The notes under the pieces: model-generated | Database searches by the model: none | Told to the model about the DNA's origin: nothing | Seen by the model: the letters and a program-made list of their open reading frames with translations, nothing else | Position numbers and translations under genes: made by a program | Origin: Patescibacteria group bacterium | GTDB taxonomy: Bacteria > Patescibacteriota > Patescibacteriia > UBA2591 > UBA4787 | Assembly: GCA_038063835.1 (NCBI GenBank) | Contig: JBBTUI010000065.1 | Coordinates: 1-26,955, forward strand | Direction: 5' to 3' | Length of the DNA: 26,955 bases | Shown here: positions 2,801 to 20,987 of the stretch, one piece after another | Position numbering within the stretch: position 1 is the stretch's first letter | Layout of the letters: every line of letters begins with the position of its first letter

Positions 2801-2847
2801 TCGGAAAAGCAAATTCATTTGCTTTTCTCTCGCTCGCTTGATAATAA
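2801..2847 (-). repeat. Hairpin element, copy 1 (paralog at 20940-20987)
   Basis: tcg-gaaaagcaaa-ttca-tttgcttttc-tctcgctcgcttgataataa. Positions 2824-2847 are identical to 20964-20987 (24 nt). Confidence 0.8.
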
Positions 2848-2861
2848 GAACTCTTAATATA

Positions 2862-2889
2862 ATTAAAGCAAATTGTCAAAAGTTGTCAA
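2862..2889 (-). promoter_or_regulatory. Sigma70-type promoter for the metallophosphoesterase gene
   Basis: Minus strand: TTGACA (2884-2889), 16-nt spacer ending TGC, then TTTAAT (2862-2867). The same TGC-TTTAAT extended -10 occurs in the promoter at 11691-11719. Confidence 0.6.
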
Positions 2890-2890
2890 C

Positions 2891-3026
2891 CCCCGTAGTA
2901 GAACTTCGAGTCGATGCTTAAACTTCATAAGTTTAAGATATTTAAACGAAACGCTTATTACCCTTTTACTTAATAAAAAACGCCGCAATAGAGCATCGAA
3001 AAAAATTCTCGAAGTTCACTACGGGG
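2891..3026. mobile_element. MITE-like element C (136 bp, about 19-20 bp TIRs)
   Basis: Left end ccccgtagtagaacttcgag and right end ctcgaagttcactacgggg differ by one indel. Inner inverted repeat tcgatgct/agcatcga. Internal perfect hairpin cttaaactt-cat-aagtttaag at 2917-2937. Confidence 0.6.
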
Positions 3027-3086
3027 CTTCGCCCCAACCATCATATTTTAAAAATTTAATTAATCTTTTTCAAGTGAGGGGCTCAA

Positions 3087-4592
3087 TTATTCGGCAATGA
3101 GTTTTCGCAAGAATTTTTCCGCGGATGAACGATTCTTAAGGCGCCCCAAAAATTGTTCTTTGCGCAAGATATCCAAATAGCGACCGATGGCTGGGCCGGG
3201 TTTGATTTTAAAAATTTTCATAATCTCGTGGCCATTTAAAGGCGGGGGTAAAATTTTCCGATTTTTTTTCTTAAGAAGACCGAGATCCTTAATGCGCCTT
3301 AAACACGAATAAAAATTAGTTAAATTTGGCTTTCGGGGCGGCAAGATTGAGGCCAGAGCGTCTGCCAAATGAAGTTTTAATAAGTCTATGCCTGGATAAT
3401 CGGCATTAAAAAAATATTTAGCTATTGTTTGGGGGCGCATTACTTCAACATTATTAGAAAAAAGCATGTGGTTTTTAACCAGCCAAATTGTTTTTTTAAT
3501 ATCAATGCCTACTTCTTCCGGACTTGATAATTTAAGTCGTTCGCAAATAATTTGAGCCAATCGCGCGCTCTCTTGATCGTGATTATAAAAAGTTAAACGT
3601 CCGTCTTGGCGAGCCAAAGTATAGGGCTTGCCGATATCATGGAAAAAGGCGGCCGCCATCAATTCGCCGGAAATATTATCTTTAGGAAATTCTTTTTTAA
3701 ATTTTAAGCTACGCAAAGCTTCGACAATTGCCATCGCATGCTGCCAAACATCGCCCTCGGTATGATATTCTTTGGGCTGCGGACATTTTTTCATTTTTAA
3801 TATCTCCGGCATTAAAATTTTGAAGGCGCCTGACTTGTCCCACAAAATAATAGCCCGAGAAAAACCTGCGCGCAAAGATTTTAGAAATTCTCTGCCGACT
3901 ATCTCGCGAGGAACCAAATACTCATCTCGCTGATTTAATTTATTGAGGCAAGGAATCAGTTTTTTTATAGACGCCCACGTTTTTTTCTCTATTTCAAAAT
4001 CCAGCTGGCAAGCAAAACGAATAGCGCGCAAAAGCCGTGAATAGTCTTCGCGAAACCTTTCTTCCGGTCTGCCCACGGTCCGAATCACTCTTTTTTTTAT
4101 ATCTTCTAAACCGTTAAACGGGTCGATAAAAATATTATCGGGACGGGCAAAAAGATTAATCGCCATAGCGTTTATGGTAAAATCCCGACGGCTCAAATCT
4201 TCTTCAATTTTAAGAGAAGCGTTACTTTGAATTTTGAAATCGCGATAAGCCCCGCTGCCTAAAGATTTTTCCGCGCGCGGCAAGGCAATCTCAATGATCT
4301 GGCCGTCAAAACCGCGCGGCGTAAATTTAAAAACGCCGAAGCTCTTGCCAACCAGACTAACCCTGCCGTTCTTCTTCAGCCAAGCTTCGAGCCGGCGAAG
4401 AGAAATATTCCTAACCACGAAATCATAATCTTTGATTTCCCGCGATAAAAAAATATCGCGTGTGGCGCCGCCGACTAAAAATACTTCGGTCCCGGGAAAA
4501 ACGCGATGAAATTTCAACCAAAAATTAAAAACTTTCTTTCTCAATAATTTTCGGCGAAAAACATTTAGATTGGTTAAAATAGATTTATCCAT
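3087..4592 (-). CDS. cca: Class II CCA tRNA nucleotidyltransferase with HD domain
   Basis: VGGATRD...DYDFVV, EEDLSRRDFTINAMA, EDYSRLLRAIRFA, and HD region HTEGDVWQH...FHDIGKP. Confidence 0.85.
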   Translation of the reverse strand: MDKSILTNLNVFRRKLLRKKVFNFWLKFHRVFPGTEVFLVGGATRDIFLSREIKDYDFVVRNISLRRLEAWLKKNGRVSLVGKSFGVFKFTPRGFDGQIIEIALPRAEKSLGSGAYRDFKIQSNASLKIEEDLSRRDFTINAMAINLFARPDNIFIDPFNGLEDIKKRVIRTVGRPEERFREDYSRLLRAIRFACQLDFEIEKKTWASIKKLIPCLNKLNQRDEYLVPREIVGREFLKSLRAGFSRAIILWDKSGAFKILMPEILKMKKCPQPKEYHTEGDVWQHAMAIVEALRSLKFKKEFPKDNISGELMAAAFFHDIGKPYTLARQDGRLTFYNHDQESARLAQIICERLKLSSPEEVGIDIKKTIWLVKNHMLFSNNVEVMRPQTIAKYFFNADYPGIDLLKLHLADALASILPPRKPNLTNFYSCLRRIKDLGLLKKKNRKILPPPLNGHEIMKIFKIKPGPAIGRYLDILRKEQFLGRLKNRSSAEKFLRKLIAE

Positions 4593-5676
4593 TATTTAAA
4601 AATTGATTGATTGTTTTAACAAATTCTTTTTTAAAATTTTCTTTGCTAAAACTTTCGGCGTGTTTTTTTATTTCTTGCGGGTTGTATTTTTGGGGGTCAA
4701 ATTTGATAACCGCGTCAGCCAAAGACTGCCAGGTTTGTTCTTCAAAGAATTCTCCAGTCTTGCCTTCTATAACAGTTTCTAAGGCGCCACCGGCCCGATA
4801 AGCAATCACTGGCCGACCGGCCGCCATAGCTTCAACCGGCGTGATGCCGAAATCTTCTTCTTGAGGATGAATTAGAGCCAGACAGCGAGATAAATACTTA
4901 GCCTTTTCTTCGTCAGAAACCGCGCCCAAAAATTCAATATTAGAATTAGCTCTCTTCAACAAATCGCTTCCTTCGCTGGCCCCGATTATCTTTAAAGGAA
5001 TTTTCATTTTATTGAAAGCCTCTATCGCTAAATCAATTCTTTTATATGGGCGGAAACGCGAAATAACCAAAAAATAATCGCCCAACTCCGGAGAAATATA
5101 AAACTTCTCTGTTTCCACCGGCGGATAAACAACGGTTGAATCGCGACGATAATATTTTTTGATCCGCGCCGCAATATTATGAGAATTGGCGATAAAATTG
5201 TCCGGCCGCTGGGCCGCAACATAATCCCAAATTCTTAATCGGGACAACAAAGACAATAATAATTTGGCCATAATCTTTTCTATGCCCCGCAAATTTTCTA
5301 TATAATCGTAAGTATCGGACCAAAGATAACGAGTAGGCGTATGGCAATAACAAATGTGTTTAGTTTTTTGTTTAGTGATAATTCCTTTGGCATAAGCCGA
5401 AACATTGGAAATTACCAAATCAAATTCGCTTAAATTAAAACGCTCAATGGCCATAGGCATCAAAGCCATATACCAGCGATATTTCTTAACGCCTAGCGGT
5501 AAATTTTGAATCGGGGAACAGCGTATTTGCCAATTATCGTAACGATGATTTAATACTTTTTTGTCGTAAATTAAAGTATAAATTGGCGCTTCCGGCCAAA
5601 TTTCGTGAAGCGCTTCTAAAACTTTTTCCGCGCCTCCGTATTGACTTAAAAAATCATGCACTATGGCTACGCGCAT
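4585..5676 (-). CDS. Glycosyltransferase family 4
   Basis: MRVAIVHDFL...GGAEKVL, CYCHTPTRYLW, EDFGITPVEAMAAGRPVIAY (GT4 ExFG..E motif). Confidence 0.92.
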   Translation of the reverse strand: MRVAIVHDFLSQYGGAEKVLEALHEIWPEAPIYTLIYDKKVLNHRYDNWQIRCSPIQNLPLGVKKYRWYMALMPMAIERFNLSEFDLVISNVSAYAKGIITKQKTKHICYCHTPTRYLWSDTYDYIENLRGIEKIMAKLLLSLLSRLRIWDYVAAQRPDNFIANSHNIAARIKKYYRRDSTVVYPPVETEKFYISPELGDYFLVISRFRPYKRIDLAIEAFNKMKIPLKIIGASEGSDLLKRANSNIEFLGAVSDEEKAKYLSRCLALIHPQEEDFGITPVEAMAAGRPVIAYRAGGALETVIEGKTGEFFEEQTWQSLADAVIKFDPQKYNPQEIKKHAESFSKENFKKEFVKTINQFLNNG

Positions 5677-5692
5677 AATAGGATAAATTTAG

Positions 5693-5708
5693 TCCGCCAA
5701 TTGGCGGA
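5693..5708. repeat. REP-like palindrome TCCGCCAATTGGCGGA
   Basis: Perfect 16-bp palindrome in the secF/GT4 spacer; the family recurs across the window. Confidence 0.85.
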
Positions 5709-5733
5709 TAGAAATTAGAATTACTTCTACTTT

Positions 5734-6639
5734 CTATTTTCTGTTTAAACCCTTGCGATTAAATAAAAGGAAAGAAGCTGCGATGGAAATTGAAGAATAA
5801 GCGCCGGTTAAAACGCCGACAGCCATGGCAAAAGCAAAATCGCGCGTGCTGACGCCTCCGAAAAGCGCCACAGCCAAAATCGCAAAAATAGTGGTCAGGG
5901 TAGTGTTAAAAGTCCGCGCGATTGTTTCATTAAGACTTTTATTGACTACCTCCTCTAAGTCGCGGCCACCTTGCGCTAAAATATTTTCGCGAATACGATC
6001 GTAAACAACAATCGTATCATTAACCGAATAACCCAGTACGGTTAAAATAGCCGCAATAGCCAAACTATTGAATTCCATTTGGCGGAAATGACCCATAACG
6101 GCGTAAAAACCGACTATAATAATAATATCGTGAAATAAAGAAAATATAGCGCCGAAAGCATACCGCCACGATTCCCCTTGTTTTATAACTTTAGATAATT
6201 TTCTGAACGACCAAGCGACATAAAGCAAAATACAAAGCGTAGCTAGAATAACGCTCCAGCGGGCCTTGTTCGTCAATTCACGACCAATCATCGGCCCCAT
6301 AGAATGAAAAGAAATTTCTTCTAAGTCGCCGATCTCATTTAGGACGGTTAATATTTTTTGATGAGTTTCTTCGTCAACATCTTTAAAACGCATAACCGCG
6401 CCATTCTCTCCTGTCAATTGAACGCTCAAATTTTCCAGTTTTAAGTCTTTAAGTTTGTCAATAATTTGTTGGTTATTGTCAATTTTAACGGAAAGATAAC
6501 GCACCTCCATAATTGTACCGCCGGTAAAATCTATGCCGAATTTTAAGCCCCAAACAATCAAGGCTATTAAAGAAAATAAAATAACAACCGCGGAAATAGT
6601 TAAAAATATTTTTCGTTTTTGAATAATTTTATAAAACAT
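5734..6639 (-). CDS. secF: Protein translocase subunit SecF
   Basis: GLKFGIDFTGGT, GPMIGREL, HDIIII, GYSVNDTIVVYDRIREN, RTFNTTLTT; lies directly downstream of secD. Confidence 0.97.
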   Translation of the reverse strand: MFYKIIQKRKIFLTISAVVILFSLIALIVWGLKFGIDFTGGTIMEVRYLSVKIDNNQQIIDKLKDLKLENLSVQLTGENGAVMRFKDVDEETHQKILTVLNEIGDLEEISFHSMGPMIGRELTNKARWSVILATLCILLYVAWSFRKLSKVIKQGESWRYAFGAIFSLFHDIIIIVGFYAVMGHFRQMEFNSLAIAAILTVLGYSVNDTIVVYDRIRENILAQGGRDLEEVVNKSLNETIARTFNTTLTTIFAILAVALFGGVSTRDFAFAMAVGVLTGAYSSISIAASFLLFNRKGLNRK

Positions 6640-6644
6640 ATATT

Positions 6645-8279
6645 TTATTTGTTAAATAATTTTAATAAATTGCGGGTTACGGTAATTGCGGTGAACATAC
6701 TGAGAATAACGCCCAACCCCAGGGTTAGCCCGAAACCGCGGATTAAACCGGTGCCAAAATAATAAAGGATAAAACAAGTGATCAGAGTAGTAACATTGCC
6801 GTCGCGGATGGCGGTCCAGGCATGGCGGAAGCCATCGTTAATTGCTGTTCCGCCAAATTTGCCTAAACGCTTTTCGTCTTTAACGCGCTCAAAAATAAGC
6901 ACATTCGCGTCAACGGCCATGCCAAGCGAGATGATAAAACCCGCGATCGCGGATAAGGTTAAAGTAACTGGCAATAATTTATAAACAGCCATATTAATTA
7001 GAGCATAAATCAATAAAGCAATTGAGGCGATTAATCCATAAAAACCATAAAAAGTAATCATAAAAATCATCACCGCTAAAAGACCGATTATGCCGGCCAC
7101 AAAACTTTTATTAACTGAAAGACGGCCTAAACTGGGACCGATATTTTGTTGACTGACCAAATTAATAGCCACGGGCAAAGCGCCGGCGCTTAATCGTTGC
7201 GCCAATTCCTTCACCTCCTTGATATTAAAATTGCCGGTAATAACTGCTTTGCCGCCGGTAATAGTTTCGCGTACGGTTGGGACGCTAATTGGCACCCCGT
7301 CCAAAAAAATAGCCACTGGCTTGCCAATATTGCGCTGGGTGATCTCGCCAAACAACTTAGTTCCCTCTTCATTAAATTCCAAAGAGACTTCTGATTCATT
7401 GGTGTTCCCGCCAAAACTCACTTGGGCGCTTTTTAATTGCTTGCCGGTTAAGCCCGTATACTGCCACTGTGATTGCGGATTACTCAAATCAATTTCGAGC
7501 GATTGAGTTTCAATAAGAATATGGCTGGCCTTAATTTCTTCCTTTCCGTCGGCTGTTTTTCTTTCGTCAAATTTTTTAATAATATGATAGCCGAAAAAAC
7601 TTTCTACTAATTGTTTGGTGACTTCTCCCTTTTTTAAAGCAAAAGCCGCTTTTTCAAATTCCGGAATCATAGCGCCTTTGCCGAACCAACCAAGATCGCC
7701 GCCTTGATTTCCACTACCCTCATCCTCTGAATATTCCTTAGCCAAAGCGGAAAAATCAGCGCCGGACTTTAGGACTTTTTTAAGAATTTCACTAGCTTTC
7801 TGTTCGGCTTGTTGATTGTAATTTTCTCTGTCTTTTTTTTCTTGATCGCTTAATGGCTTGGACGAGGCCTGTTCTCTAAATTCCAAAATTGGCGTTTCGC
7901 CGATCATTTCAATGGCCTCTTTCACATTCCTAATACCAGGCAATTCAACCACCAACCTCCATTCATTTTCAGCTTTCACGGTATGGATAACCGGCTCGCT
8001 TACACCGAAAAAATTAACGCGGCGCTCAATTACATCGCGCGCGCCCTCAACTGCCGCCTCTCGCTGGTCTCCGGGAATATTAGTTGTATCTGTCTGATAA
8101 ATCAACTGTGTTCCGCCTTGCAAATCAAGACCTAAATGAATTTTTTGCTTAGTAAACCACTGACTAAGAGGTACCCAACTAGGCACTCTCGGAATGTTAA
8201 CCAATAAAGAAAAAATCGTTATCAAAATAATAACGATGAGTAATGTCCAATTTTTATTGCTTTGCGACATATAAAACAA
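6645..8279 (-). CDS. secD: Protein translocase subunit SecD with an inserted parvulin-type PPIase domain
   Basis: LGLDLQGGTQL, RRVNFFGVSEP, LSAGALP, IGPSLG, GMAVDANVLIFER, AIRDGNVTT. The insert reads FSALAKEYSED...GGDLGWF...PEFEKAAF...GYHIIK...ASHILI. Confidence 0.95.
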   Translation of the reverse strand: MFYMSQSNKNWTLLIVIILITIFSLLVNIPRVPSWVPLSQWFTKQKIHLGLDLQGGTQLIYQTDTTNIPGDQREAAVEGARDVIERRVNFFGVSEPVIHTVKAENEWRLVVELPGIRNVKEAIEMIGETPILEFREQASSKPLSDQEKKDRENYNQQAEQKASEILKKVLKSGADFSALAKEYSEDEGSGNQGGDLGWFGKGAMIPEFEKAAFALKKGEVTKQLVESFFGYHIIKKFDERKTADGKEEIKASHILIETQSLEIDLSNPQSQWQYTGLTGKQLKSAQVSFGGNTNESEVSLEFNEEGTKLFGEITQRNIGKPVAIFLDGVPISVPTVRETITGGKAVITGNFNIKEVKELAQRLSAGALPVAINLVSQQNIGPSLGRLSVNKSFVAGIIGLLAVMIFMITFYGFYGLIASIALLIYALINMAVYKLLPVTLTLSAIAGFIISLGMAVDANVLIFERVKDEKRLGKFGGTAINDGFRHAWTAIRDGNVTTLITCFILYYFGTGLIRGFGLTLGLGVILSMFTAITVTRNLLKLFNK

Positions 8280-8332
8280 AGTTTAAAATTATATTTATTA
8301 ATAATAGCACCGAACAATTAAAATGGCAAGAA

Positions 8333-9592
8333 TTAATCTTCAACTCTTTTTATTTCTGCTCCCAAACTGTTCAGGCGTTCCTCAATTTTTTCGTAACCCC
8401 GGTCAACGACTTCCGCCTGATTAATAATTGTTTCTCCTTGAGCGATCAAACCCGCGATAATCAAAGTAGCGCCGGCGCGCAAATCAAAGCTCCTGATTTC
8501 CTGGCCATAAAGCGGAGTGGGCCCATTGATAATAACGCGGTGCGGATCAGCCACAATCGCATTAGCCCCCATCTTAATTAATTCTTGAATATAACCCATG
8601 CGTCCCTCAAAAAGCGGGTCTTGAATCAATGTTGTTCCCTGACATTGTGTAGCCAAAATGCCGAAAGGCGCTTGCAGATCGGTTGGAAATCCCGGATAAG
8701 GCAAAGTCTGCAATCTGAATGATTTTAAATTTGAGGATGGCAGAAATTCAACGGCCTTATGGCGAACCTCAAATTTAATGCCGATTTGATTTAGCTTTAA
8801 CAAAATTATGTCCAGGTGTTCCGGCTCAATGCCTTTGAGAATAACATGTCCGCGCGTTAAAGACGAAGCAACGGCAAAAGTGCCGGCTTCGATCTGATCC
8901 GGAATAATATAATGCTCGGTTCCTTTTAATTTTGACACTCCTTCAATAATTAAAGTATGCGTTCCGACGCCGGATATTTTAGCTCCCATTTTATTTAAAA
9001 ATAAACATAAATCTTGGACATGGGGCTCGGCGGCGGCCAATTTAATTATCGTTTTGCCCTGGGCTAAAACCGCGGCCATTATTGTGTTTTCAGTTGCGGT
9101 AACTGAAAATTCTGGTAAAATAATAAGGTTGCCGATTAGTTTGTCCACTTTTATTTTATAAACCGCGTCTTCTTTAATAATTTTAGCGCCCAATTTTTCT
9201 AAAGCGTAAAAATGCGTGTCTAATGGACGATTGCCGATAATGCACCCGCCTGGTTCCGAGATTTCTACTGAACCAAAACGGCCTAAAAGCGGTCCCATAA
9301 AAAGGACTGATGAGCGCATTTTTTTGACTAATTTCTGATCAAGATTTTTTAAATCAACTTCTTTATTGCATATCTTCACGCAACCTTCAGAAACCTTTTC
9401 AATTTTACTGCCCAAACTTTTTAGAATATCAATCATCGCGGAAACATCTGATATCTGAGGCAAATTATCAACCAAGCAGGGTTCTTCGGTAAGCAGGGTA
9501 GCCGCCAAAATTGGAGTCGCCGCATTTTTCATCCCCTTAATTACAACTTCGCCGTTTAATTTTTTACCGCCCTGAATAATAAATTTAGACAT
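8333..9592 (-). CDS. murA: UDP-N-acetylglucosamine 1-carboxyvinyltransferase
   Basis: GMKNAATP, MRSSVLFMGPLLGR, PGGCIIGNRP (catalytic Cys present), PYPGFPTDLQ, DLRAGA, RGYE. Confidence 0.97.
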   Translation of the reverse strand: MSKFIIQGGKKLNGEVVIKGMKNAATPILAATLLTEEPCLVDNLPQISDVSAMIDILKSLGSKIEKVSEGCVKICNKEVDLKNLDQKLVKKMRSSVLFMGPLLGRFGSVEISEPGGCIIGNRPLDTHFYALEKLGAKIIKEDAVYKIKVDKLIGNLIILPEFSVTATENTIMAAVLAQGKTIIKLAAAEPHVQDLCLFLNKMGAKISGVGTHTLIIEGVSKLKGTEHYIIPDQIEAGTFAVASSLTRGHVILKGIEPEHLDIILLKLNQIGIKFEVRHKAVEFLPSSNLKSFRLQTLPYPGFPTDLQAPFGILATQCQGTTLIQDPLFEGRMGYIQELIKMGANAIVADPHRVIINGPTPLYGQEIRSFDLRAGATLIIAGLIAQGETIINQAEVVDRGYEKIEERLNSLGAEIKRVED

Positions 9593-9596
9593 ACGG

Positions 9597-9705
9597 GTTA
9601 GAATTATGAATTATGAATTTAGAATTACGAATTGAGAAGCAAAAATTGGTAATTGAAAATTGATTGAAAATTGAAAATTGGTAATTGAAAATTAAAAATT
9701 GACTT
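9597..9705. repeat. 7-nt-period tandem arrays (GAATTAT-type, then AAAATTG-type)
   Basis: gaattat gaattat gaattta gaattac gaattga, then aaaattg gtaattg aaaattg ... aaaattg aaaattg gtaattg aaaatta aaaattg, between the divergent murA and PEGA genes. Confidence 0.85.
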
Positions 9706-9729
9706 TTGAATTTTAATTTTTTATCTATC

Positions 9730-11184: not shown

Positions 11185-11297
11185 CCCCATTAGAGATTCA
11201 ACCGATGCTATCTTTTATAAAGAATATCTCGAGCGATAGCGCCTTACGGCTCACATCAGACTATCACCCCCGTTCAATTTTAAATCTCTAACGGGGT
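11184..11297. mobile_element. MITE-like element, family 1, copy a (114 bp)
   Basis: TIRs accccattagagatt / aatctctaacggggt (15 bp, 1 mismatch). The interior is homologous to 13188-13310. It begins on the last base of the PEGA stop codon. Confidence 0.7.
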
Positions 11298-11624: not shown

Positions 11625-11656
11625 CAGGTCTGATCTGGTCAAACAGGTCAGGCCTG
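11625..11656 (+). terminator. Hairpin downstream of SemiSWEET, possible terminator
   Basis: caggtctgatctg / caggtcaggcctg forms a 13-bp stem with two G-U pairs on the plus strand and a 6-nt loop. The U-tract is weak. Confidence 0.4.
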
Positions 11657-11690
11657 TTCCATCTTGTTTATAATACCCCTTTTTTTGCTC

Positions 11691-12483: not shown

Positions 12484-12560
12484 CATGCTCCACGCTCCAT
12501 GCTCCACGCTCCAAGTTTCAAGTTTTGACTTCTACTTTCTATTTTCTAACCTCTACTACT
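12484..12560. repeat. 7-nt-period repeat mosaic
   Basis: catgctc cacgctc catgctc cacgctc caagtttcaag ... ttctact ttctatt ttctaac ctctact. Shares modules with 20038-20077. Confidence 0.75.
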
Positions 12561-12567
12561 TAGGAAA

Positions 12568-12705
12568 CCGGGCAGTGAAAATTCGATAGTGTTCTTTGTT
12601 TCGCTTCGCTAATTAATCTTTTAATATACCAAATAACTAACTTTTATTTTCAGTGCATCGCCCACATAATCACACCCTAAGAAGCATCGAATTTCTACTG
12701 CCCGG
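12568..12705. mobile_element. MITE-like element, family 2, copy A (138 bp)
   Basis: TIRs ccgggcagtgaaaattcgat / atcgaatttctactgcccgg (18/20 match). Homologous to the reverse complement of 25967-26117. Confidence 0.72.
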
Positions 12706-13165
12706 CGAACACCCAAAATTTATTGGAAATAAATCTGACAAATAAAATAATGATAGCGCAAAAAACCTTGGCCAATAAGTCATAGAAGTGGGCGTGGACA
12801 AGTAAAACAAAAAACCACTGATAAATCAGGGTGGTGACAATAACCATTATCCAGAATTTGATATATTGCCAAAATATTTTTTTGTCTTGGTTTTTAAAAA
12901 CTATTTTTTTGCTCCAAAGAAAAAAAATAGTGGCGCTTATAATCAAAGCGATAATATTAGCCCACTCGTAATACGCTTGCCAGAAATTAAAAAAGCGGGT
13001 CAAAAAAAAATAAACCGCAAAATCAAAAAGCGTGCAAATACTGCCCGCGATAAAATAATGTATCATCTGCCTGCCCAATTCCGTATGATAGAAATTTTTT
13101 ATTCTGTGTAGTGGTAAAAATTTAAAAATAGAATTTGGGGTTATAAATTTAGAATCTATAATCAA
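12695..13165 (-). CDS. GtrA family protein (putative lipid-linked sugar translocation)
   Basis: QMIHYFIAGSICTLFDFAVYFFL...F.WSKKIVFK...QYIKF...AKV...RFISNKFWVF; four TM helices. The start is uncertain. Confidence 0.8.
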   Translation of the reverse strand: MIIDSKFITPNSIFKFLPLHRIKNFYHTELGRQMIHYFIAGSICTLFDFAVYFFLTRFFNFWQAYYEWANIIALIISATIFFLWSKKIVFKNQDKKIFWQYIKFWIMVIVTTLIYQWFFVLLVHAHFYDLLAKVFCAIIILFVRFISNKFWVFAGQ

Positions 13166-13187
13166 CTAATTTGCCAATCTATTATTC

Positions 13188-13310
13188 ACCCCGTTAGAGA
13201 TTCAGCCAAAGTAATCTTTTTTAGATCCGCCAACTGGCGGACTCGAGCGAAACCGCCTCACGGCTTTTGATGGTCTATAAAACATGATCAATTTTAAATC
13301 TCTAACGGGG
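13188..13310. mobile_element. MITE-like element, family 1, copy b, containing a REP-like palindrome
   Basis: Perfect 14-bp TIR ccccgttagagatt / aatctctaacgggg. It shares atctttt, ctcgagcga, acggct and tcaattttaaatctctaacgggg with 11184-11297. Confidence 0.72.
13226..13241. repeat. REP-like palindrome TCCGCCAACTGGCGGA
   Basis: Read directly; nested within the family 1 element. Confidence 0.85.
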
Positions 13311-13437
13311 CGGGTTTACGAATTTTTATTTGTATATTTGGACAGATTTGTAAATTTGTTGATAAGTTTACTTTTTAACTTATACTTTTGACTTTGAGTT
13401 ATCCTTCGCTTGGCTCAGGATGGTGAGCGAACAGGGA

Positions 13438-15687
13438 TTATTCTTTGATTTTAATCGTGGACACATAAACTCCGCCTAAGAAATTTTTAGAATAAGCGAA
13501 AAATTGGGATTTAACATCGCCATAATAATCAAAGATACGGATATGCGGCCCGCCGCCGAAACCAGGACCGGCAATAACTTCGGCTAGGCCGTCATCGTTT
13601 AAGTCGCCGGCGGCGATATTTACGCCTTTATTAAAATTGCGATCGTAAGCTAAATACTGAACTCTTAAATCGCCGAACTGATTAAAAACCCTGACGAAAG
13701 GACTGGCTTTAGAGGCGATGGCCGTGACAATTTCCGCTTGGCCGTCGTTATTAAGATCGCCGACCGCGAGATTAACTCCACCGCGGAAAGTTTTAAGAAA
13801 CGCGAAAAAACTATATTTAGCCCAGCCCTCCGGGGTGAAAATCCTCACATGAGGACCGCCGCCGGCTTGCGGCGCGGTAACAATTTCTTTAACGCCGTCT
13901 TTATCAACATCGCCAACCGCCACATTAAATCCGCCCAAGAAATTTTTAGAATAAGCTAAAAATTTTAATTCTAACTCGCCGCCAAAATTATAAACATAAA
14001 CATACGGAGCGCTTCCCGAACCGGCCGCCACTAAAATTTCCGCCTTGCCATCTTCGTCAATATCGGCGACCGCTAAATTCCCGCCTTTAAATTTGTCGTC
14101 TTTATTAACGACAATGAATTGATTTTTTAGCTGGCCCTGATAATTAAAAATTTTTAATAAATGGTGGTTTCCCGAAGCCGGCAGAGTGATAATTTCATCT
14201 TCGCCGTCGCCGTCAACATCTCCGGTGGCAACTTTCACTCCTCCTTTGAATTTATTGTCATAAGCCATAAAGCCAGATAGTTCAATGCCATTGGATTTTA
14301 AAATTCTTACATGCGGACCGCCGCCCGGTCCGGCGGCTGTCACTATATAACGCGGCTGAGGCAGATTAAGAAGCTGGCCGTAAACATAATTAACCGCGCG
14401 ATAAACATTCAGCCGGCCGGCGCCTAGTTTGCCGGCATAATCAATATTTAATAAATCAATATTATCGGCTTGAGCCATCAAAATATTTCTAATCTGGACG
14501 TTGCTGATTAACGGGTTAACTGCTTTTAAAAGCGCGGCGGCGCCGGAAACCAAGGGCGTAGCCACAGAAGTGCCAGACCAGTATCCGCCATAATATTCTT
14601 TAAAATCGTCGCCTATGGCCTGGTTATAAACCATTAAGCCATACACTCGACTGCCGGGCGCGGAAATATCAATACAACGCGAACCATAATTGGAAAAACC
14701 GCCTTTTTGATCATTCTGATCAGTCGCGGCTACGCCGATGATATAATTTTCGCTATCATCCGCGTCCAAACAAATAGGATAAGCCGGAACTTGATCTAGA
14801 TCTTCTGTTTGACCAGTCGCTTCATTGCCTGCCGCGGCCACGATAACCAAGCCGGCCTGCCAAGCCCTTTTCAATGCTTGGACCAAAAAATCACTTTTAT
14901 TAGAACCGACAAAACTTAAATTAATAATATTAGCGCGCTGGCTAACCGCGTAATTGACCGCGCGAATTACTGAATCAACCGAACCATTGCCCTCGCTGTC
15001 TAAAACTTTTAAGGCCATAATCTTTGATTTCCAAGCTACGCCCGCGACGCCTTGATTGTTGTCGCCTACGGCCGCGACTAAACCAGCCACAATTGTGCCA
15101 TGATGAATAGCTGCGGCATTATAAGGTTCGTCAAATTTCGGCCGCGGATTGGGATCATCGCGCGCGAAATCCCAGCCATAATAATCATCAATATATCCGT
15201 TGCGATCATTGTCTATGCCGTCGCCGGGAATTTCCTTTTCATTGGTCCAAATATTGGCCCGCAGATCAGGATGATTAATATCAACGCCCGCGTCCAAAAT
15301 AGCAATAATTACATCATTCGCTCCACCCTTAGTAATATCCCAAGCTTGCGGCGCCCTAATTTTGCTTAAATTCCACTGCTCTCCGAACAATGGATCCGAA
15401 GGCAGATAACTTATCTTGAATAAATAGTTCGGTTCAACCTTCGCAATACTGGTATTGTTCAAAATAATTTCCCTTAATTCTTTTAGGTCTGGGTTGTCGG
15501 GATATTTAATTTTGTAAATTTTATTGCTGTCTTTGAGTTGAACGAGGAGCTCGCCGGGAATATAATTGTCATCGGATGGCGAATTAGCAATATTATTTGA
15601 TTGCGCCAATAAAAAACCATGAAAACCGGCAGATACCAGCATCAAACTAAAGAAAAAAATAAGAAATTTTTTAATCCCAAAATTCAT
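13438..15687 (-). CDS. Secreted S8 (subtilisin-like) serine protease with C-terminal FG-GAP repeats
   Basis: Signal peptide. Catalytic triad LDAGVD / HHGTIVAG / GTSVATP and oxyanion AAGNE. Repeats such as GGGPHVRI and VATGDVDGDGEDEIIT. Confidence 0.92.
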   Translation of the reverse strand: MNFGIKKFLIFFFSLMLVSAGFHGFLLAQSNNIANSPSDDNYIPGELLVQLKDSNKIYKIKYPDNPDLKELREIILNNTSIAKVEPNYLFKISYLPSDPLFGEQWNLSKIRAPQAWDITKGGANDVIIAILDAGVDINHPDLRANIWTNEKEIPGDGIDNDRNGYIDDYYGWDFARDDPNPRPKFDEPYNAAAIHHGTIVAGLVAAVGDNNQGVAGVAWKSKIMALKVLDSEGNGSVDSVIRAVNYAVSQRANIINLSFVGSNKSDFLVQALKRAWQAGLVIVAAAGNEATGQTEDLDQVPAYPICLDADDSENYIIGVAATDQNDQKGGFSNYGSRCIDISAPGSRVYGLMVYNQAIGDDFKEYYGGYWSGTSVATPLVSGAAALLKAVNPLISNVQIRNILMAQADNIDLLNIDYAGKLGAGRLNVYRAVNYVYGQLLNLPQPRYIVTAAGPGGGPHVRILKSNGIELSGFMAYDNKFKGGVKVATGDVDGDGEDEIITLPASGNHHLLKIFNYQGQLKNQFIVVNKDDKFKGGNLAVADIDEDGKAEILVAAGSGSAPYVYVYNFGGELELKFLAYSKNFLGGFNVAVGDVDKDGVKEIVTAPQAGGGPHVRIFTPEGWAKYSFFAFLKTFRGGVNLAVGDLNNDGQAEIVTAIASKASPFVRVFNQFGDLRVQYLAYDRNFNKGVNIAAGDLNDDGLAEVIAGPGFGGGPHIRIFDYYGDVKSQFFAYSKNFLGGVYVSTIKIKE

Positions 15688-16725
15688 TTAATTTAAATAT
15701 TTTTGCTTAGCCGCGTCGTGTTCTTCTTTCGTTTTGCTATAAATAATCTGGCCGTCATCAGTTGAAAGAAAATACCAATAATCATTTTTTGACGGCTGCA
15801 GAACAGACTTGATTGAAGAAAGGCCGGGGTTTCCAATCGGGCCAGGCGGCAAACCGCGATATTTATAAGTATTATAAGGTAATTCAATTCTTGTGTCTTC
15901 AATACTTAGACGCGTTTTCTTTTTGGGTAAAATATAATTTATGGTAGCGCAAGATTGAAGTGGCATACCGATTTTTAAACGCCTTAAAAATATATCGGCC
16001 ACTAAACGCCGATCAATTTCGTTGGCCGCCTCTTTTTCAATAATAGAAGCCAAGATTAAGACCTCGAAAATACTTTTATATTGACGAGCGATTTCTTCTT
16101 TTATACCCGAATCAAGCTTAACATCGAAATTGTCCAACATTTTCTTAATAACCGTTTCCGGTTTAGCGTCGCGATAAATTCTATAAGTATCAGGGAAAAG
16201 ATATCCTTCCAAAGAATAATTATTGGGCTTATCAGCCAAAAAATCATAATCCAAAATCCCAGAAGATCCCAAATAATAACAAGCGTCTAAAAATTCCTGT
16301 CGAGAGAATAATCCTGATTTTTCCAAATAAGCGCCAATCTCTCCTTGCGTCCACCCTTCGCGGATAATAATTAATTGCTCATTGACCATCTTCGCGGTCA
16401 AAAAATTAATGACTTCTTTCCAGCTCATAGCCGGATTAAGATAATACCGACCAGGCTGAAAAAGATTAATGCGATTCCTTAAATAGGCATAGACCTTAAA
16501 GCCAATCTCGCTTTCAATCACGCCTTGGCTTTTAAGTTGGCGAATAATTTCGCTGGCTGGCTCGTTCCGCGCGATATTAATTTGTTTTAATTCAAGATTT
16601 TGATTTAAAAGAACATAAGCCTGCCATCTATAATACAGAATGACCAGCAAAAAAACAAGAAAAATATATAAAATAAAAAGATATTTTTTAAACATTTTGG
16701 AATTAAAATACTTCTCCTTTTTCAA
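15688..16725 (-). CDS. mltG: Endolytic transglycosylase MltG (YceG family)
   Basis: N-terminal TM helix, LEGYLFPDTY, ASIIEKEA (catalytic Glu), YNTYKYRGLPPGPIGNPG, YWYF. The start may be ATG 16695. Confidence 0.95.
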   Translation of the reverse strand: MKKEKYFNSKMFKKYLFILYIFLVFLLVILYYRWQAYVLLNQNLELKQINIARNEPASEIIRQLKSQGVIESEIGFKVYAYLRNRINLFQPGRYYLNPAMSWKEVINFLTAKMVNEQLIIIREGWTQGEIGAYLEKSGLFSRQEFLDACYYLGSSGILDYDFLADKPNNYSLEGYLFPDTYRIYRDAKPETVIKKMLDNFDVKLDSGIKEEIARQYKSIFEVLILASIIEKEAANEIDRRLVADIFLRRLKIGMPLQSCATINYILPKKKTRLSIEDTRIELPYNTYKYRGLPPGPIGNPGLSSIKSVLQPSKNDYWYFLSTDDGQIIYSKTKEEHDAAKQKYLN

Positions 16726-19447
16726 TAGTAATAACTCCGCCTTTATCTAAAATCGCCGTATCTCGCCGGCCGATTTGGCCAGCTAAAAGAAATTTAGCCA
16801 AAGAATCGTTTATTTTCTCTTGGATAACCCTTTTAAGCGGCCGGGCGCCAAAAATCGGGTCAAACCCAAGCTGGGCCAATTCTTCTAAGGCCACATCAGT
16901 AACTTTTAAAGTAATGCCTTTTTCCGCCAATTGTTTGGCTGTTCCTTTCACCAATAAAGAAGCAATTTGCTTAATTTCGATTTGGGTCAACGGTTTAAAA
17001 ACTATAACTCCGTCAAAACGGTTAAGAAACTCCGGTCTGAAATATTCATTTAATTTTTCTTCAAGCAGTTTTTTGCGCAATTCCGCAAAAGGCATATTAT
17101 TGCGCGTTGATTCTTGGATAAAAATTGAACCGGCATTTGAGGTAGCGATCAAAACCACATTTGTAAAATCAATAGTTCGGCCCAAGGCATCGGTCAAACG
17201 ACCATCGTCCATCACCTGCAAAAAAACATTTAGAATATCCGGGTGGGCCTTTTCAATTTCATCTAATAGAACCAGCGAGAAAGGATTTTGGCGAACCGCT
17301 TCAATAAAATAACCTGATTCGCCCGAACCCGGCACGCCGATTAAACGATAGATGCTCGCCTTATCTTGATATTCGCTCATATCCAAACGGATCATTTTAT
17401 TTTCGTCGCCGAAATAGACGCTGGCCACAGTTTTGGCCAACTCGGTTTTACCAACGCCGGTCGGTCCCAAAAACAACAGATTGGTAATTGGTTTTTTGGG
17501 ATTTCTTAATTCCGTGCGCGCCCGGCGCAAAGCCGCGGCCACCATTTTTACCGCCTCGTCCTGGCCAATAATTCTTTCATGTATTCGCTCTTCTATGTCG
17601 AGGAGTTTCTCGCTCTCGCTTTCGGTTAATTTGGTCAATGGGATATTGGTTTTTTCCGCCACCAAAGCCGACAAATCTTCAGCTACCACTACATTTTGTT
17701 TGCCGCGTTTATTGCGCACAAAAACTGAAGCCTCATTTAAGAGATTAATGGCTTTGTCGGGCAAAAAACGATCATATATATAACGAGTGGAAAGAATATA
17801 GGCTTGTTTAATGGCGCTATAAGAAAAATAAACTTGCTCTTTGGATTCAATATTCGCCACATTAGCCTCTAAGATTTGAATGGTTGTGTTTTTGTCCGGC
17901 TCTTCAATATTGATTTTTTGCAAGACCTCACCCAATGATCGGTTCTCAATAACGCGAGTATAGTCATTGGGCGTCGTAGTGGCTAAAACTATCAAAAGGC
18001 GTTTTTTGATCGCGTCAGCCAAAATCTCTGAAATATCCAATTCTCCTTGCGTGGTTTTCACGCCCACGATATTTTGGATATTTGAAATAAATAAAATAAT
18101 ATTTCCTGAGCGGTTAATTTCGCTTAAAATAAACTGTAAGCGCTGTTCGATCTCACCCGACTGGGAAGCGCCGGCTATCAAATCTGAAATATTCAAACTT
18201 ACCAGGCGTTTGTCCTGAAAAACCTTGGGCATATCTTCGGTTGCCATGCGCCTAGCCAGTCCATTGATTATTGTAGTTCGACCGACGCCGGGCTGGCCGA
18301 CCAAAACGACTCCGCACCCGCCTCCTTCAATCGCCCGTAAAATTGAATCTTGCTCTTTTTCTCTGTCAATGCATATTTTAAAATAACCCGCCCGCGCCGA
18401 TAAAGTTAAATCTTGGCTATACAAATCCAAATTCGGAGTAGCAACGGCAGTCATAGCTCGGTTCATACCGCTCTTGGGCTTAAATCTCGCTAAACCGGCA
18501 AATCTTTTCCACTCTTGATACAATTGATTATAAATTTCTATCCAAACTACCACATTGCGTATATCATCAACCGCAACGCTAAAATCATATAGAATGTCTT
18601 TAACCGGCCCCTCTTGTACGCTTAAACTCTCTAAAATTTGCAAAGAGTCAATTTCTTTTATTTTTTTATCGCTGGCTAAACCATAGGCCTGAACAAATAC
18701 TTCTTTAGTCTCTTTAGAAATTATCGGGACGGTTAAAATCTTGTTTTGGACCGGCAATTTACTTAAGGCTGTGGAGATTTTTGTTTGCATTTTGGACCAA
18801 TCAAAACCCAGGCGCATTAAAGCTAAATTGACCTTGGAAACGGAGAAACTGACCGCGAAAAGATGAATCGGCATCAAATGGTCATGCCCCATTTTCCTCG
18901 CTAAACCCATAGCCTTTAAGAACATTTGCTCGGCCTCTTGCGAAAGCGCGTCAGTAGCGTTAATTTTAATCTTACGGCTCAAGCGTTCAATCTCTTCCCA
19001 TGTCGCCGGCAGATTGGGAATCGATCTGACAGTTTTCGGCCAAATTTTTCTTTTTTCTTCACTTTTACGAGTAAGACTATAATATAAAAAACAATCTGTA
19101 ATTATTGACAGCCAGAAAATAATTAATAAGCTTTGCTGGTTATGATTCAAATCAATTAAACCAAAAAAGTTGATATTATTTAACCAAGGGGCATCAAAAC
19201 GAAGAAAAAACTTGAGAATCGCCAATAAACCAACTAGGCCGTATAAAAATAAAATGGCTTCTATAAGAAAAACAACTACTCTCTTAATATGGAATAGCCA
19301 AATTTGCCAGCCCATGTAAGCTCGGCGAAAATACACCAAAAAACCGCCAGCCCAAGCATAAAGACCAGCCCGACGACAAACAAGGCAGATTTTTTTATCA
19401 GCCGAGTATCCGGAACCGTCGCATTTTGGACAATAAATAAAATCCAT
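16703..19447 (-). CDS. ClpA/B/C-family AAA+ ATPase with N-terminal Zn finger, TM helices and a degenerate D1
   Basis: CPKCDGSG...CLVC, two hydrophobic segments, Clp_N-like repeats. D1 has GQPGVGRTT / ILFISNIQ. D2 has GPTGVGKTE / LLDEIEKAH / FRPEFLNRFD / GARPLKR. Confidence 0.9.
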   Translation of the reverse strand: MDFIYCPKCDGSGYSADKKICLVCRRAGLYAWAGGFLVYFRRAYMGWQIWLFHIKRVVVFLIEAILFLYGLVGLLAILKFFLRFDAPWLNNINFFGLIDLNHNQQSLLIIFWLSIITDCFLYYSLTRKSEEKRKIWPKTVRSIPNLPATWEEIERLSRKIKINATDALSQEAEQMFLKAMGLARKMGHDHLMPIHLFAVSFSVSKVNLALMRLGFDWSKMQTKISTALSKLPVQNKILTVPIISKETKEVFVQAYGLASDKKIKEIDSLQILESLSVQEGPVKDILYDFSVAVDDIRNVVVWIEIYNQLYQEWKRFAGLARFKPKSGMNRAMTAVATPNLDLYSQDLTLSARAGYFKICIDREKEQDSILRAIEGGGCGVVLVGQPGVGRTTIINGLARRMATEDMPKVFQDKRLVSLNISDLIAGASQSGEIEQRLQFILSEINRSGNIILFISNIQNIVGVKTTQGELDISEILADAIKKRLLIVLATTTPNDYTRVIENRSLGEVLQKINIEEPDKNTTIQILEANVANIESKEQVYFSYSAIKQAYILSTRYIYDRFLPDKAINLLNEASVFVRNKRGKQNVVVAEDLSALVAEKTNIPLTKLTESESEKLLDIEERIHERIIGQDEAVKMVAAALRRARTELRNPKKPITNLLFLGPTGVGKTELAKTVASVYFGDENKMIRLDMSEYQDKASIYRLIGVPGSGESGYFIEAVRQNPFSLVLLDEIEKAHPDILNVFLQVMDDGRLTDALGRTIDFTNVVLIATSNAGSIFIQESTRNNMPFAELRKKLLEEKLNEYFRPEFLNRFDGVIVFKPLTQIEIKQIASLLVKGTAKQLAEKGITLKVTDVALEELAQLGFDPIFGARPLKRVIQEKINDSLAKFLLAGQIGRRDTAILDKGGVITIEKGEVF

Positions 19448-19454
19448 ACCAAGT

Positions 19455-19569
19455 TTAATTTAAAATTCAAAAATCAAAAATTAAAATGACAAATCAAAAT
19501 GTAAAATTATCAGTATTATTCGTTAAATTCCAAGCTCTAAATTCCATATTCTAAATTCCAAATTCTATT
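19455..19569. repeat. 7-nt-period tandem arrays
   Basis: aaaattc aaaaatc aaaaatt aaaatga...; tctaaat tccatat tctaaat tccaaat tcta. Confidence 0.7.
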
Positions 19570-19920
19570 CTATTTTATTAATTGATAAACCGCGTAAGGC
19601 AAAATAGCAAGCCAAGCGAAAAATAATACCAACAATATTGCCGCGCCAATTATAAATAATATTAAATAAACCACTAATTGCAGAACGCGCATAAAAAAAC
19701 TGATGATTCTTCCGCTAAACGAATATTGACCGAACATTGGCTTAAACATATTTGCCAATAACAAACGGAGCGCCAAAGAGCGCGCTAATTTATAAACATT
19801 ATCGCGCAAAGAAAATGCGGCATTTTTTAAACCTTTCGTATACCACCAAATCGGAAAATACAAAATTTCTAAAAGCGGGTTGATGATAGTAAATTTTACG
19901 AAAGACGCGAATGAATACAT
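19570..19920 (-). CDS. Hypothetical membrane protein upstream of the Clp ATPase
   Basis: 116 aa, hydrophobic, with YFPIWWYTKG and FKPMFGQY; same orientation as its neighbours. Confidence 0.75.
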   Translation of the reverse strand: MYSFASFVKFTIINPLLEILYFPIWWYTKGLKNAAFSLRDNVYKLARSLALRLLLANMFKPMFGQYSFSGRIISFFMRVLQLVVYLILFIIGAAILLVLFFAWLAILPYAVYQLIK

Positions 19921-19924
19921 GAAA

Positions 19925-20077
19925 AATTGAATTATGAATTATGAATTATGATATTGAAACTTGTAGCTTCGTGCTTTACGCTCCACGTTTTGCGCTTTGC
20001 GCTCTCCGCCCAAGGCGGATCCGCCTCTGGCGGACAAGCTCCATGTTCCAAGTTTCAAGATTCTATTTTCTACTTTA
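19925..20077. repeat. Composite repeat mosaic with tandem REP-like palindromes
   Basis: gaattat x3 and tttgcgc x2, then tccgcccaaggcgga (20005-20019) abutting tccgcctctggcgga (20020-20034), then ccaagtttcaag and ttctattttctact. Confidence 0.8.
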
Positions 20078-20106
20078 CCAATTTTGTTTAATTTTCACAA
20101 TGTATA

Positions 20107-20859
20107 TCAAGAAGATGGTTTTACGCTCTTGTCTCCGCTATGCAACTTCTTAAAGCTTAACTTTTGTTGAACAATGGTTAAAACTAGGCCGATTAACCAG
20201 TATAACATCAAACCGCTAGGCAAACCCAAGCCGATAAAAACCGTTAAAATGGGCATCATAAAAATCATTTGCTTGTTCATAATCGCCATTACGGTTTCAT
20301 CTTTAGCGCCTTCTTTTTTGGCGATATTCGGAAGAGGCTGTATAGTTGTCAGCATTTTTCCCTGCCAATATTGAAGAAGCCCGGTAATCAATGTTAAAAT
20401 TAGATTGGGTTTTGATAAATCTAAAACTCCAAAAGAAAGAACATTCAAAACGCCGGGATTATGGATAAAGCTGTAAAGATCAATAGCTAAATTTTTAGAA
20501 ATAAGGCCGTTACGGAAAACCTGATAAACCGCCAATAAAATTGGCAGTTGAATCAGTAATAAAAAAATGGAAGAAAAAGGATTAACTTTATTTTCTTTAT
20601 AGATAGCCATAGTCGCCTGAGCTAATTTGGACGGGTCTTTCTTGTATTTTTCCTTTAGAGCGCTAATTTTTGGTTGAATAGCTTGCATCGCTTTTTGCGA
20701 TCTTAAAGCTTTTTCTGATAATGGCCAGAGAACGAGGCGGATTACCAAGGTTAACAATAAAATCGCCAGACCCAAATCAGCGAACGGAAAAATATTATAA
20801 AAAAAGACCAGCAAATTAAGCAGCGGGCGATAAAGTACTTCGTTAAAAAGATGGATCAT
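20107..20859 (-). CDS. yidC: Membrane protein insertase YidC/Oxa1 (short form)
   Basis: LGLAILLLTLVIRLVLWPL, MQAIQPKI..LKEKYK, YKENKVNPF, LLIQLPIL, LPSGLMLYW. Confidence 0.95.
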   Translation of the reverse strand: MIHLFNEVLYRPLLNLLVFFYNIFPFADLGLAILLLTLVIRLVLWPLSEKALRSQKAMQAIQPKISALKEKYKKDPSKLAQATMAIYKENKVNPFSSIFLLLIQLPILLAVYQVFRNGLISKNLAIDLYSFIHNPGVLNVLSFGVLDLSKPNLILTLITGLLQYWQGKMLTTIQPLPNIAKKEGAKDETVMAIMNKQMIFMMPILTVFIGLGLPSGLMLYWLIGLVLTIVQQKLSFKKLHSGDKSVKPSS

Positions 20860-20861
20860 AT

Positions 20862-20905
20862 AATTAGAATTATGAATTTAGAATATAGAATTTAGAATTT
20901 AGAAG
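20862..20905. repeat. 7-nt-period tandem array upstream of yidC
   Basis: gaattat gaattta gaatata gaattta gaattta gaagc. Confidence 0.8.
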
Positions 20906-20922
20906 CTTGCCTGCCCCTCCGA

Positions 20923-20940
20923 ATCCGCCAGCTGGCGGAT
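20923..20940. repeat. REP-like palindrome ATCCGCCAGCTGGCGGAT
   Basis: Perfect 18-bp palindrome. Confidence 0.88.
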
Positions 20941-20987
20941 CGGAAATGAAAATAAAATTTTCATTTCTCTCGCTCGCTTGATAATAA
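20940..20987 (-). repeat. Hairpin element, copy 2 (overlaps the rnpA 3' end)
   Basis: tcg-gaaatgaaaat-aaa-attttcatttc-tctcgctcgcttgataataa; same frame as 2801-2847 with a different stem core. Confidence 0.8.

Follow-up and report, generated by a model that had tools for sequence, protein, structure and literature searches.

Several described systems offer a frame for a hairpin-forming sequence that lies at 2801-2847 and again at 20940-20987 of a 26,955-nt stretch of DNA (the window: contig JBBTUI010000065.1, positions 1 to 26,955, of assembly GCA_038063835.1) from a Patescibacteria group bacterium. Both sites are most likely copies of one non-coding, non-autonomous mobile DNA element of about 83 nt. 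The REP/BIME and REPIN-RAYT systems of proteobacteria are, like this element, short, non-coding, intergenic, high-copy hairpins with compensatory changes, and are likewise found as singles, clusters and mosaics with short motifs. However, the element has no 5' GTAG-type motif and forms no inverted pairs, its tandem copies run head-to-tail, and its three helices include a long-range one; also unlike REPIN-RAYT, the only Y1 gene of the window's genome (G000) is flanked by another palindrome, and the Y1 family does not co-occur with the element. IS200/IS605 transposons and PATEs share with it the lack of terminal inverted repeats (TIRs), the subterminal hairpins and an insertion 3' of a tetranucleotide resembling their own 3' end, and insertion of this kind would also account for exact head-to-tail arrays. 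By contrast, no TnpA was found in the near-complete genome of a sister species (G001), the element shows no replication bias, and one of its hairpins abuts the junction without a linker.

BOX, RUP, Correia/NEMIS and ERIC repeats are also about 100 nt long, modular, structured, co-transcribed and devoid of an internal transposase, and they can alter gene ends and expression, as can the element. Correia and RUP repeats carry TIRs and make TA-type duplications, BOX is assembled from boxA-B-C modules, and none of them is known to be related to the element in sequence. Integron attC sites resemble it in having outer segments that pair, unpaired spacers, a central stem free in sequence and length and, often, a position directly after a stop codon, but the element's ends lack RYYYAAC/GTTRRRY boxes (alignment A1), there is no integron integrase, and the copies lie dispersed among housekeeping genes, in either orientation, rather than gathered in cassette arrays. 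The element falls into the broad class of small non-autonomous repeats of bacteria (REP/BIME, BOX, Correia, PATE) and differs from these in its architecture, target, phyletic spread and origin-like end. The family itself is undescribed: Rfam 15, searched with the whole window at E<=1, gives no match at the element (only a weak, unrelated match to Flavo-1 at 12879-12954), and no description of the element was found in the literature, either among repeats of the candidate phyla radiation (CPR)/Patescibacteria or by its sequence.

Repeat unit, fold and insertion sites

A first, sequence-only reading of the window took this to be a two-copy element. A profile search finds 41 copies in G000 (644 kb in 105 contigs, 97% complete, 38.6% GC) and 55 in G001 (~0.77 Mb in 4 contigs, 99% complete; coding DNA 80-88% identical to that of G000); the right-arm 19-20-mer alone occurs 35-37 times in G000 at <=3 mismatches, and reversed-pattern controls for this arm give 0 matches there. 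Flank alignment defines a unit of ~83 nt, which is longer than previously thought and begins, in the first window copy, at 2764/2765 with a second hairpin. On the displayed strand, the one reading ATAA-AGG...GATAATAA, the consensus consists of ATAA, then the junction, AGGGTATTAACCCTGTGTTATCTGCGCTCGCTCG, the variable hairpin and CTCGCTCGCTTGATAATAA, where the unit ends. The two ends of the element, AGGGTATTAACC... and ...GCTCGCTTGATAATAA, are not reverse complements, there are no TIRs, and the sole inverted pair is the internal TTATC/GATAA. Two conserved unpaired GCTCGCTCG arms stand on either side of the variable hairpin (P3), and in the right arm the columns CTTG and AATAA do not vary, and the two columns between them hardly do (alignment A1).

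RNAalifold, applied to 22 diverse copies, resolves three helices: P1 (AGGGT/ACCCT); P2, in which TTATC pairs with the distant GATAA; and P3. Compensatory changes affect 12 of the 21 pairs in this set. The conserved pairing anticipated from the two window copies, for which a covariance check had been proposed, holds in larger samples, and all three helices covary strongly. Paired cells amount to 93.5% in 69 distinct copies from other lineages (76.7% in shuffles) and to 91.8% in 62 copies from G001 and G000 (78.3% in shuffles), both of these alignments having been fitted to the model, which favours structure; none of 500 shuffles reaches any of five measures in either alignment, and sliding the partners lowers pairing to 42-52%. 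In P1, all 5 pairs show compensatory changes across copies; in P3, all 10 pairs covary across lineages, and pairing is kept in each of the variants GAAGAGCAAA, GAAAAGTAAAT, GATATGCATGAT and GAAATTCAAAAA; and P2, whose arms are ~50 nt apart, covaries via the subfamilies TTTTC/GAAAA and TTTG/CAAA. The most conserved part across phyla is the unpaired arms (alignment A1). As single-stranded DNA (ssDNA), the two strands fold equally well (z ~ -5).

The proposal that this is a dispersed mobile hairpin is upheld by the 41 and 55 copies, by their covariation and by a comparison of their sites, in which 500-nt flanks of each copy were placed on the other genome, in both directions and across the whole of G001. 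Only ~6-7 sites are occupied in both genomes, many being filled in just one of them, and 14 clean pairs of filled and empty sites could be aligned; both window copies are absent from the orthologous G001 sites. In 9 of the 14 pairs, ATAA stands exactly at the junction of the empty site; the others deviate, most by 1-2 bases. A filled site reads ATAA followed by the inserted AGGG...GATAATAA: insertion occurs 3' of a fixed tetranucleotide and without TIRs. G000 copies are on average 80% identical to one another and 75% identical to G001 copies, a closeness that points to spread or homogenisation after the species split.

If the target is only four bases long, where do the copies settle? With open reading frames (ORFs) called by a simple ORF caller in both genomes, all copies lie between ORFs except 3 and 2 inside them (some of the calls are doubtful). 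Between co-directional genes, 34 copies are in sense and 27 in antisense orientation. Of the 34 in sense, 22 adjoin or overlap the stop codon of the upstream gene, in one of two ways: its TAA lies within ATAA, or its reading frame continues for 14 nt into the element and terminates in the P1 loop. Because so many sense copies sit at an upstream stop codon, we take ATAA to be the target and stop codons to be ATAA sites at which insertion is harmless. Besides the rnpA case described below, the element supplies stop codons to ~8 other ORFs in the two genomes.

Candidate mechanisms of movement

The element has the look of a selfish mobile sequence, not of a gene switch, and the best lead to its enzyme is an HUH-type nicking enzyme, because the right end has CTTGATA(ATAA), the nick core of pC194-/phiX174-type origins. 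The annotated phiX174 origin is nicked between CTTG and ATA, and the pC194 origin reads TTCTTATCTTGATAATAAGGGTAAC...GTTACCC (PMC7072734). When the pC194 record NC_002013 was compared, a post hoc choice made for its resemblance, the element junction CTTGATAATAA-AGGGTA matched the rolling-circle origin core CTTGATAATAAGGGTA at 16 of 17 positions; in 2000 shuffles, an equally good score anywhere in pC194 came up only 2 times, and the stretch matched is the origin itself. In arrays, the right arm ends in CTTGATAATAA and the next unit, AGGGTATTAACCCT, follows directly. As with P2 and P1 of the element, the site in pC194 is bracketed by a TTATC..GATAA repeat, and a GGGTA...TACCC hairpin comes next; by this comparison, the element resembles an origin core whose loop has been enlarged by the arms and P3. 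IS91 and Helitrons share with it the subterminal 3' hairpin and the lack of TIRs. The differences are that (i) the element junction lies 7 nt 3' of the canonical nick between CTTG and ATA of pC194/phiX174, and TTATC and GATAA are ~50 nt apart, with P3 between them; (ii) unlike IS91, whose target is CTTG/GTTC, the element targets ATAA, and empty sites have no CTTG; and (iii) neither G000 nor G001 has a Rep_1, Y2_Tnp, Phage_GPA, Rep_trans or Rep_OBD gene.

Whichever enzyme mobilises the element, it would recognise the fold and the constant arms on DNA, probably in a single-stranded or extruded state; only copies with an intact fold would give rise to new copies, and these, once inserted, would decay neutrally. 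One tentative model of the mechanism, which we hold to be possible, is a miniature rolling-circle or "peel-and-paste" parasite, that is, a mobile pC194/phiX174-type origin core served in trans by an HUH nuclease. The parts of the origin core might then be CTTGATAATAA as the nick region, the TTATC/GATAA repeat and the GGGTA...TACCC hairpin, with the loop widened by the variable hairpin, and the contiguous origin counterpart of the element could be TTATC-TTGATAATAA-AGGGTA. The nuclease would nick and rejoin the element as ssDNA, and its source would be an unbinned plasmid, an ssDNA phage or an unrecognised host enzyme. If this were true, the element would be the smallest known origin-derived transposable element and would reveal a hidden rolling-circle mobilome in CPR bacteria, spreading without genes across phyla, from Patescibacteria to Elusimicrobiota. 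With its well-supported three-helix fold and its origin-like end, the element offers a tangible starting point in the search for the mobilising enzyme.

A number of results weigh against the reading as a mobile element in general. Apart from the fitting of the two large alignments mentioned above, G001, with its 55 copies, has no match to Y1_Tnp, DDE_Tnp_1, RVT_1, Rep_1, Y2_Tnp, Phage_GPA, Rep_trans or Rep_OBD, and no gene-carrying copy, with arms split by a gene, was found in G000, G001 or four metagenome-assembled genomes (MAGs) of Elusimicrobia. Viral contigs yield 0 right-arm matches and 5 chance junction matches, all of them coding, and no carrier; BLAST against plasmids and phages gives chance matches only; and a junction scan of metagenomes returns mostly chance coding matches and a few ordinary copies from the Hainich aquifer. 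MAGs leave out plasmids and small phages, so that an enzyme may still act in trans. Nearest-neighbour copies are 95-98% identical, and none are identical except tandem units; the copies are not very young, and therefore some of the polymorphism could reflect loss by slippage between flanking ATAA rather than gain. Finally, filled sites have ATAA at either side and empty sites have a single ATAA, which fits a target site duplication as well as a target plus an element-borne end.

Apart from miniature elements nested in copies and a single GC-rich orphan gene, the search for split arms turned up nothing, with no transposase enclosed, and the left arms all pair with right arms ~49 nt away. The neighbourhood of one copy with a nested element is worth recording: between it and a degraded copy lies a 257-aa ORF (G001 C1:180956-181729; L136:956-1729) that is far GC-richer than its ~38% GC genome and looks foreign, and that has a G001 paralogue with >60% identity. 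An IS91-like gene in one Elusimicrobia MAG was considered as a partner and rejected, as there are no element ends nearby. G000 and G001 have one Xer-like recombinase each, and in a screen of G001 paralogues and accessory genes for a multi-copy transposase nothing stood out.

The double ATAA at filled sites, single at empty ones, is what a classical miniature inverted-repeat transposable element would leave if a DDE transposase duplicated a 3-4-bp TAA/ATAA and used the inner TTATC/GATAA as short inverted repeats; the shorter core forms of other lineages, which start near TTATC, and the other clear TIR-type miniature elements of G000, some even nested in this one, are in line with such an origin. 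We nevertheless regard it as unlikely: the true ends, AGGGTATT... and ...CTTGATAATAA, do not form inverted repeats, the right end stays ATAA even where the left flank deviates (ATAG, ATAT, ATGA, CCGC), and DDE_Tnp_1, the sole DDE family searched, has no match in G000, G001, G005 or G022. IS608-type elements insert 3' of a tetranucleotide equal to their own last four bases. The element does the same, has hairpins and lacks TIRs, and G000 does encode one IS200-like (RAYT-like) Y1_Tnp protein of 229 aa (C15:1391-2080; L009:1258-1947, minus strand), which could have moved a REP/REPIN- or IS200/IS605-derived sequence as ssDNA. What makes this derivation improbable is that the Y1 gene is flanked on both sides (L009:1195-1235 and 2005-2040) by a different palindrome, ACAGGTCAGACCTGT(T/A)ACAGGTCTGACCTGT, which recurs at ~8 other loci of its own, including a degenerate copy in the window near 11625-11660; that Y1_Tnp was not found in the element carriers G001, G003, G004 and G005 and, with 5 of 9 genomes that have the element against 20 of 32 that do not, shows no co-occurrence; and that neither orientation relative to local GC skew in G001 (29 concordant, 26 discordant, hence no replication-strand bias) nor wobble pairing betrays a strand. 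Judging by their sequences, the Y1 gene and its ACAGGTCAGACCTGT palindromes look like a REPIN-RAYT system in a CPR genome.

If the fold is so well kept, could it not act as RNA? Among the alternatives of the sequence-only reading was an unannotated structured RNA placed relative to start codons, and a repeated cis-acting RNA (a 5' leader, a processing or stability signal, a terminator) would draw on the stable fold, the strong covariation, the many copies inside operons, which must be co-transcribed, and the position of copy 1 between promoter-like TTGACA boxes (read from the sequence) and a gene start. Yet the 34 sense and 27 antisense copies reveal none of the orientation bias on which the regulatory interpretation depended, antisense copies keep no fixed distance to starts or stops, and both window copies are absent from the same genes in the sister species. 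A functional RNA strand would tolerate G·U but not A·C, and there is no such asymmetry: across the sets of 62 and 69 sequences, G·T and A·C mismatches number 62 and 60 in one and 33 and 45 in the other. An early hint of a strand-specific RNA or ssDNA, from 9 A·C to 1 G·T in the central hairpins of G000, was discarded when the asymmetry vanished with these two sets. Promoter and terminator scans at both copies stay at chance level, with no terminator-like site called, and Rfam has no match. Broken pairs rise with the divergence of the constant unpaired columns (Spearman 0.48, p 8e-4, and 0.62, p 3e-7), and this parallel decay of stems and constant arms points to neutral decay after insertion; it speaks against local selection and against per-copy self-repair, the mechanistic regeneration considered earlier for the stems. 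We find a cis-acting RNA very improbable, and give equally little credence to a neutral repeat whose stems are kept paired by intra-strand templating or gene conversion without selection. The latter could draw on the swapping of whole palindromic modules in the centre of the element and on hairpin-less forms, which show frequent rearrangement at the direct GCTCGCTCG repeats, but the long-range P2 covaries too, the unpaired arms are the part best conserved across phyla, and the ~6-8% of cells that are unpaired, mostly through single transitions, accumulate with copy age. Our conclusion is that the element requires its fold to propagate as DNA and that the fold does not serve the neighbouring genes.

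Modules, arrays and spread across lineages

Many copies have another module in place of a portion of the left arm or the hairpin: the palindrome TCCGCCAGCTGGCGGA, a CCCGCC...GGCGGG hairpin or an entire miniature TIR element. The 14-nt core of TCCGCCAGCTGGCGGA has 53 exact occurrences in G000 (73 with one mismatch), and the palindrome lies inside element copies on contigs C26, C45, C66, C92, C100 and C101; it contains a PvuII-type CAGCTG and sometimes forms the tip of the element's central hairpin (e.g., at locus L086). At G000 C37:7343-7590 and G001 C1:180639-180815 (L136:639-815), copies carry in their centre or right arm a nested miniature element of the TIR type, CCCCGTTAGAAG...CTTCTAACGGGG, and these repeats are therefore layered insertions. 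Elsewhere, copies follow one another head-to-tail, for example on C12 with an 81-nt period. Three copies in three genomes (L074, L068 and G000 C27:1943) have the same non-ATAA left flank, CGGCAAGCCGC, which suggests, from its recurrence, another module travelling with the element.

Hairpin-less copies are found in an Elusimicrobia MAG. In such copies (G044 C3:153323-153357, C3:31468-31498 and C3:181399-181429; G041 C44:3475-3509), the left and right arms have one GCTCGCTCG in common. P3 may have been gained with a duplication of this 8-9-mer, or lost by slippage between the direct repeats.

Within the order to which G000 belongs, the element is patchy, 9 of 41 genomes having its right arm. When species were scanned with one genome each, full-length copies turned up in MAGs labelled Falkowbacteria, Komeilibacteria, Magasanikbacteria and Portnoybacteria, and also in MAGs labelled Parcubacteria, Saccharibacteria and Gracilibacteria. 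Four independent Elusimicrobia MAGs of 1.5-2.3 Mb hold 2-18 copies each, and the element is therefore not confined to CPR. Isolated matches in unrelated taxa are put down to chance, because ~17 matches to the right-arm 19-mer are expected (an estimate) in 596 Gb. The 19-nt arms are nearly identical between distant CPR classes and Elusimicrobiota, which suggests that the element has spread horizontally within groundwater communities. One carrier, CAZVCF01 (G020), is labelled Gammaproteobacteria and yet is placed in the order of G000, and four more "binchicken" MAGs with that label carry the element (the G020 set: L041, L070, L080, L087 and L092); the Gammaproteobacteria labels of these "binchicken" carriers look wrong, and that of CAZVCF01 looks doubtful.

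Why would such an element matter to its hosts? CPR/Patescibacteria genomes are viewed as extremely streamlined, yet two of them, of ~0.64 and ~0.77 Mb, hold 41 and 55 gene-less copies, and carry several other repeat families besides. The element remodels gene ends, as in the RnpA tail described below, sits between co-transcribed genes and upstream of gene starts, and breaks metagenome assemblies; a covariance model of the family would mask recurrent false "novel RNA" calls in annotation.

The two copies in the window and their genes

The sequences first described at 2801-2847 and 20940-20987 are both there, in the same orientation, and the 24 identical nt reported for them correspond to the block TTTCTCTCGCTCGCTTGATAATAA, present at 2824-2847 and at 20964-20987; a 20-mer of this block occurs 2 times in the window against 0 expected (100 shuffles). 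The two stems pair perfectly, as reported, over 10 bp in copy 1 (GAAAAGCAAA/TTTGCTTTTC, loop TTCA) and 11 bp in copy 2 (GAAATGAAAAT/ATTTTCATTTC, loop AAA).

Copy 1 is a full-length element on the + strand (2764..2848), aligned to positions 1-85 of covariance model R1 with 104 bits and scoring 72.6 bits with nhmmer. Its P1 hairpin (2767..2785, + strand; AAAAGGT/ACCTTTT, loop ATTAA) begins at the insertion junction after ATAA (2765-2768). P2 (2788..2843, + strand) pairs TATC at 2788-2791 with GATA at 2840-2843 and encloses the arms and P3; P3, the stem reported earlier, occupies 2803..2828 (+ strand; sequence and fold). The constant right arm, CTCGCTCGCTTGATAATAA, follows at 2829..2847 (+ strand), contains CTTGATA and coincides with the near-invariant columns of alignment A1. 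As ssDNA, copy 1 folds with -17.4 kcal/mol (z -5.2; complement, z -5.4). In G001, the corresponding site lacks the element, and ...TTTTAAAAGAGC runs directly into TATATATAATTAAAAC. Copy 1 is an intact insertion just upstream of a 673-aa gene (697..2718, - strand; ORF list), whose start lies 46 nt from the left end of the copy. The identity of this gene as a metallophosphoesterase could not be confirmed, Pfam giving no match at E<=0.001.

The bases of both hairpins do lie roughly 85 nt from a minus-strand ATG (87 nt to 2718, 84 nt to 20859), but this spacing, noted earlier, is coincidental: measured from the left end of the element to the start of the adjacent gene, the gap is 46 and 78 nt in the window copies and anything from 5 to 393 nt in the other antisense copies.

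Copy 2 is a 5'-truncated element (20938..20987, + strand), matched by nhmmer to profile positions 34-82 only: it retains P3 (20943-20967) and the right arm (20969-20987) and has neither P1 nor the left half of P2. The 16-nt palindrome TCCGCCAGCTGGCGGA, a separate module, abuts it at 20924..20939 (no strand assigned). A composite repeat block of ~120 nt (20860..20981, no strand assigned) replaces the 12-nt rnpA-yidC spacer of G001. The genes on either side are rnpA, for the RNase P protein (20961..21320, - strand; Pfam PF00825 Ribonuclease_P, E 2.2e-24), and, next after it, yidC (20107..20859, - strand; Pfam PF02096 60KD_IMP, E 9.6e-47). Copy 2 encodes the RnpA C-terminus L L S S E R E K and its stop, as had been noticed; the element-derived end of the gene (20961..20981, - strand) comprises, in translation, the codons S S E R E K and the TGA stop. 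RnpA accordingly ends ...KKMNLLSSEREK in G000 and ...KKMNLLK in G001, in which the region reads AAT TTA TTA AAA TAA ACATTT ATG(yidC) and rnpA ends 6 nt before yidC. A further genome compared at this site, G003, lacks the element too, and copy 2 was therefore gained in the lineage of G000. It is what remains, on the right-hand side, of an old insertion at the TAATAA with which rnpA ended; further repeats have rearranged it, and it now provides six rnpA codons and the stop.

Between yidC and copy 2, the window has an AT-rich low-complexity repeat of the TAGAAT/TTAGAA type (20862-20905); similar tracts adjoin element copies on C88 and are also present close to the Y1 gene of C15. In G002, a genome of the same family (C18, L116 ~860-900), the 3' end of rnpA runs over ...AAGCGGGCTCGCTTAATAAAAA, which resembles the right arm in sense orientation; this could be a chance match, or what is left of an old, degenerate copy at the end of the same gene. 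Contigs assembled from public runs (Logan) break within the element, at 2798 and 20959, and the G000 assembly is itself broken inside copies, for example at C12:2405-2510, a run of N; the element repeats probably explain much of the fragmentation of G000 into 105 contigs.

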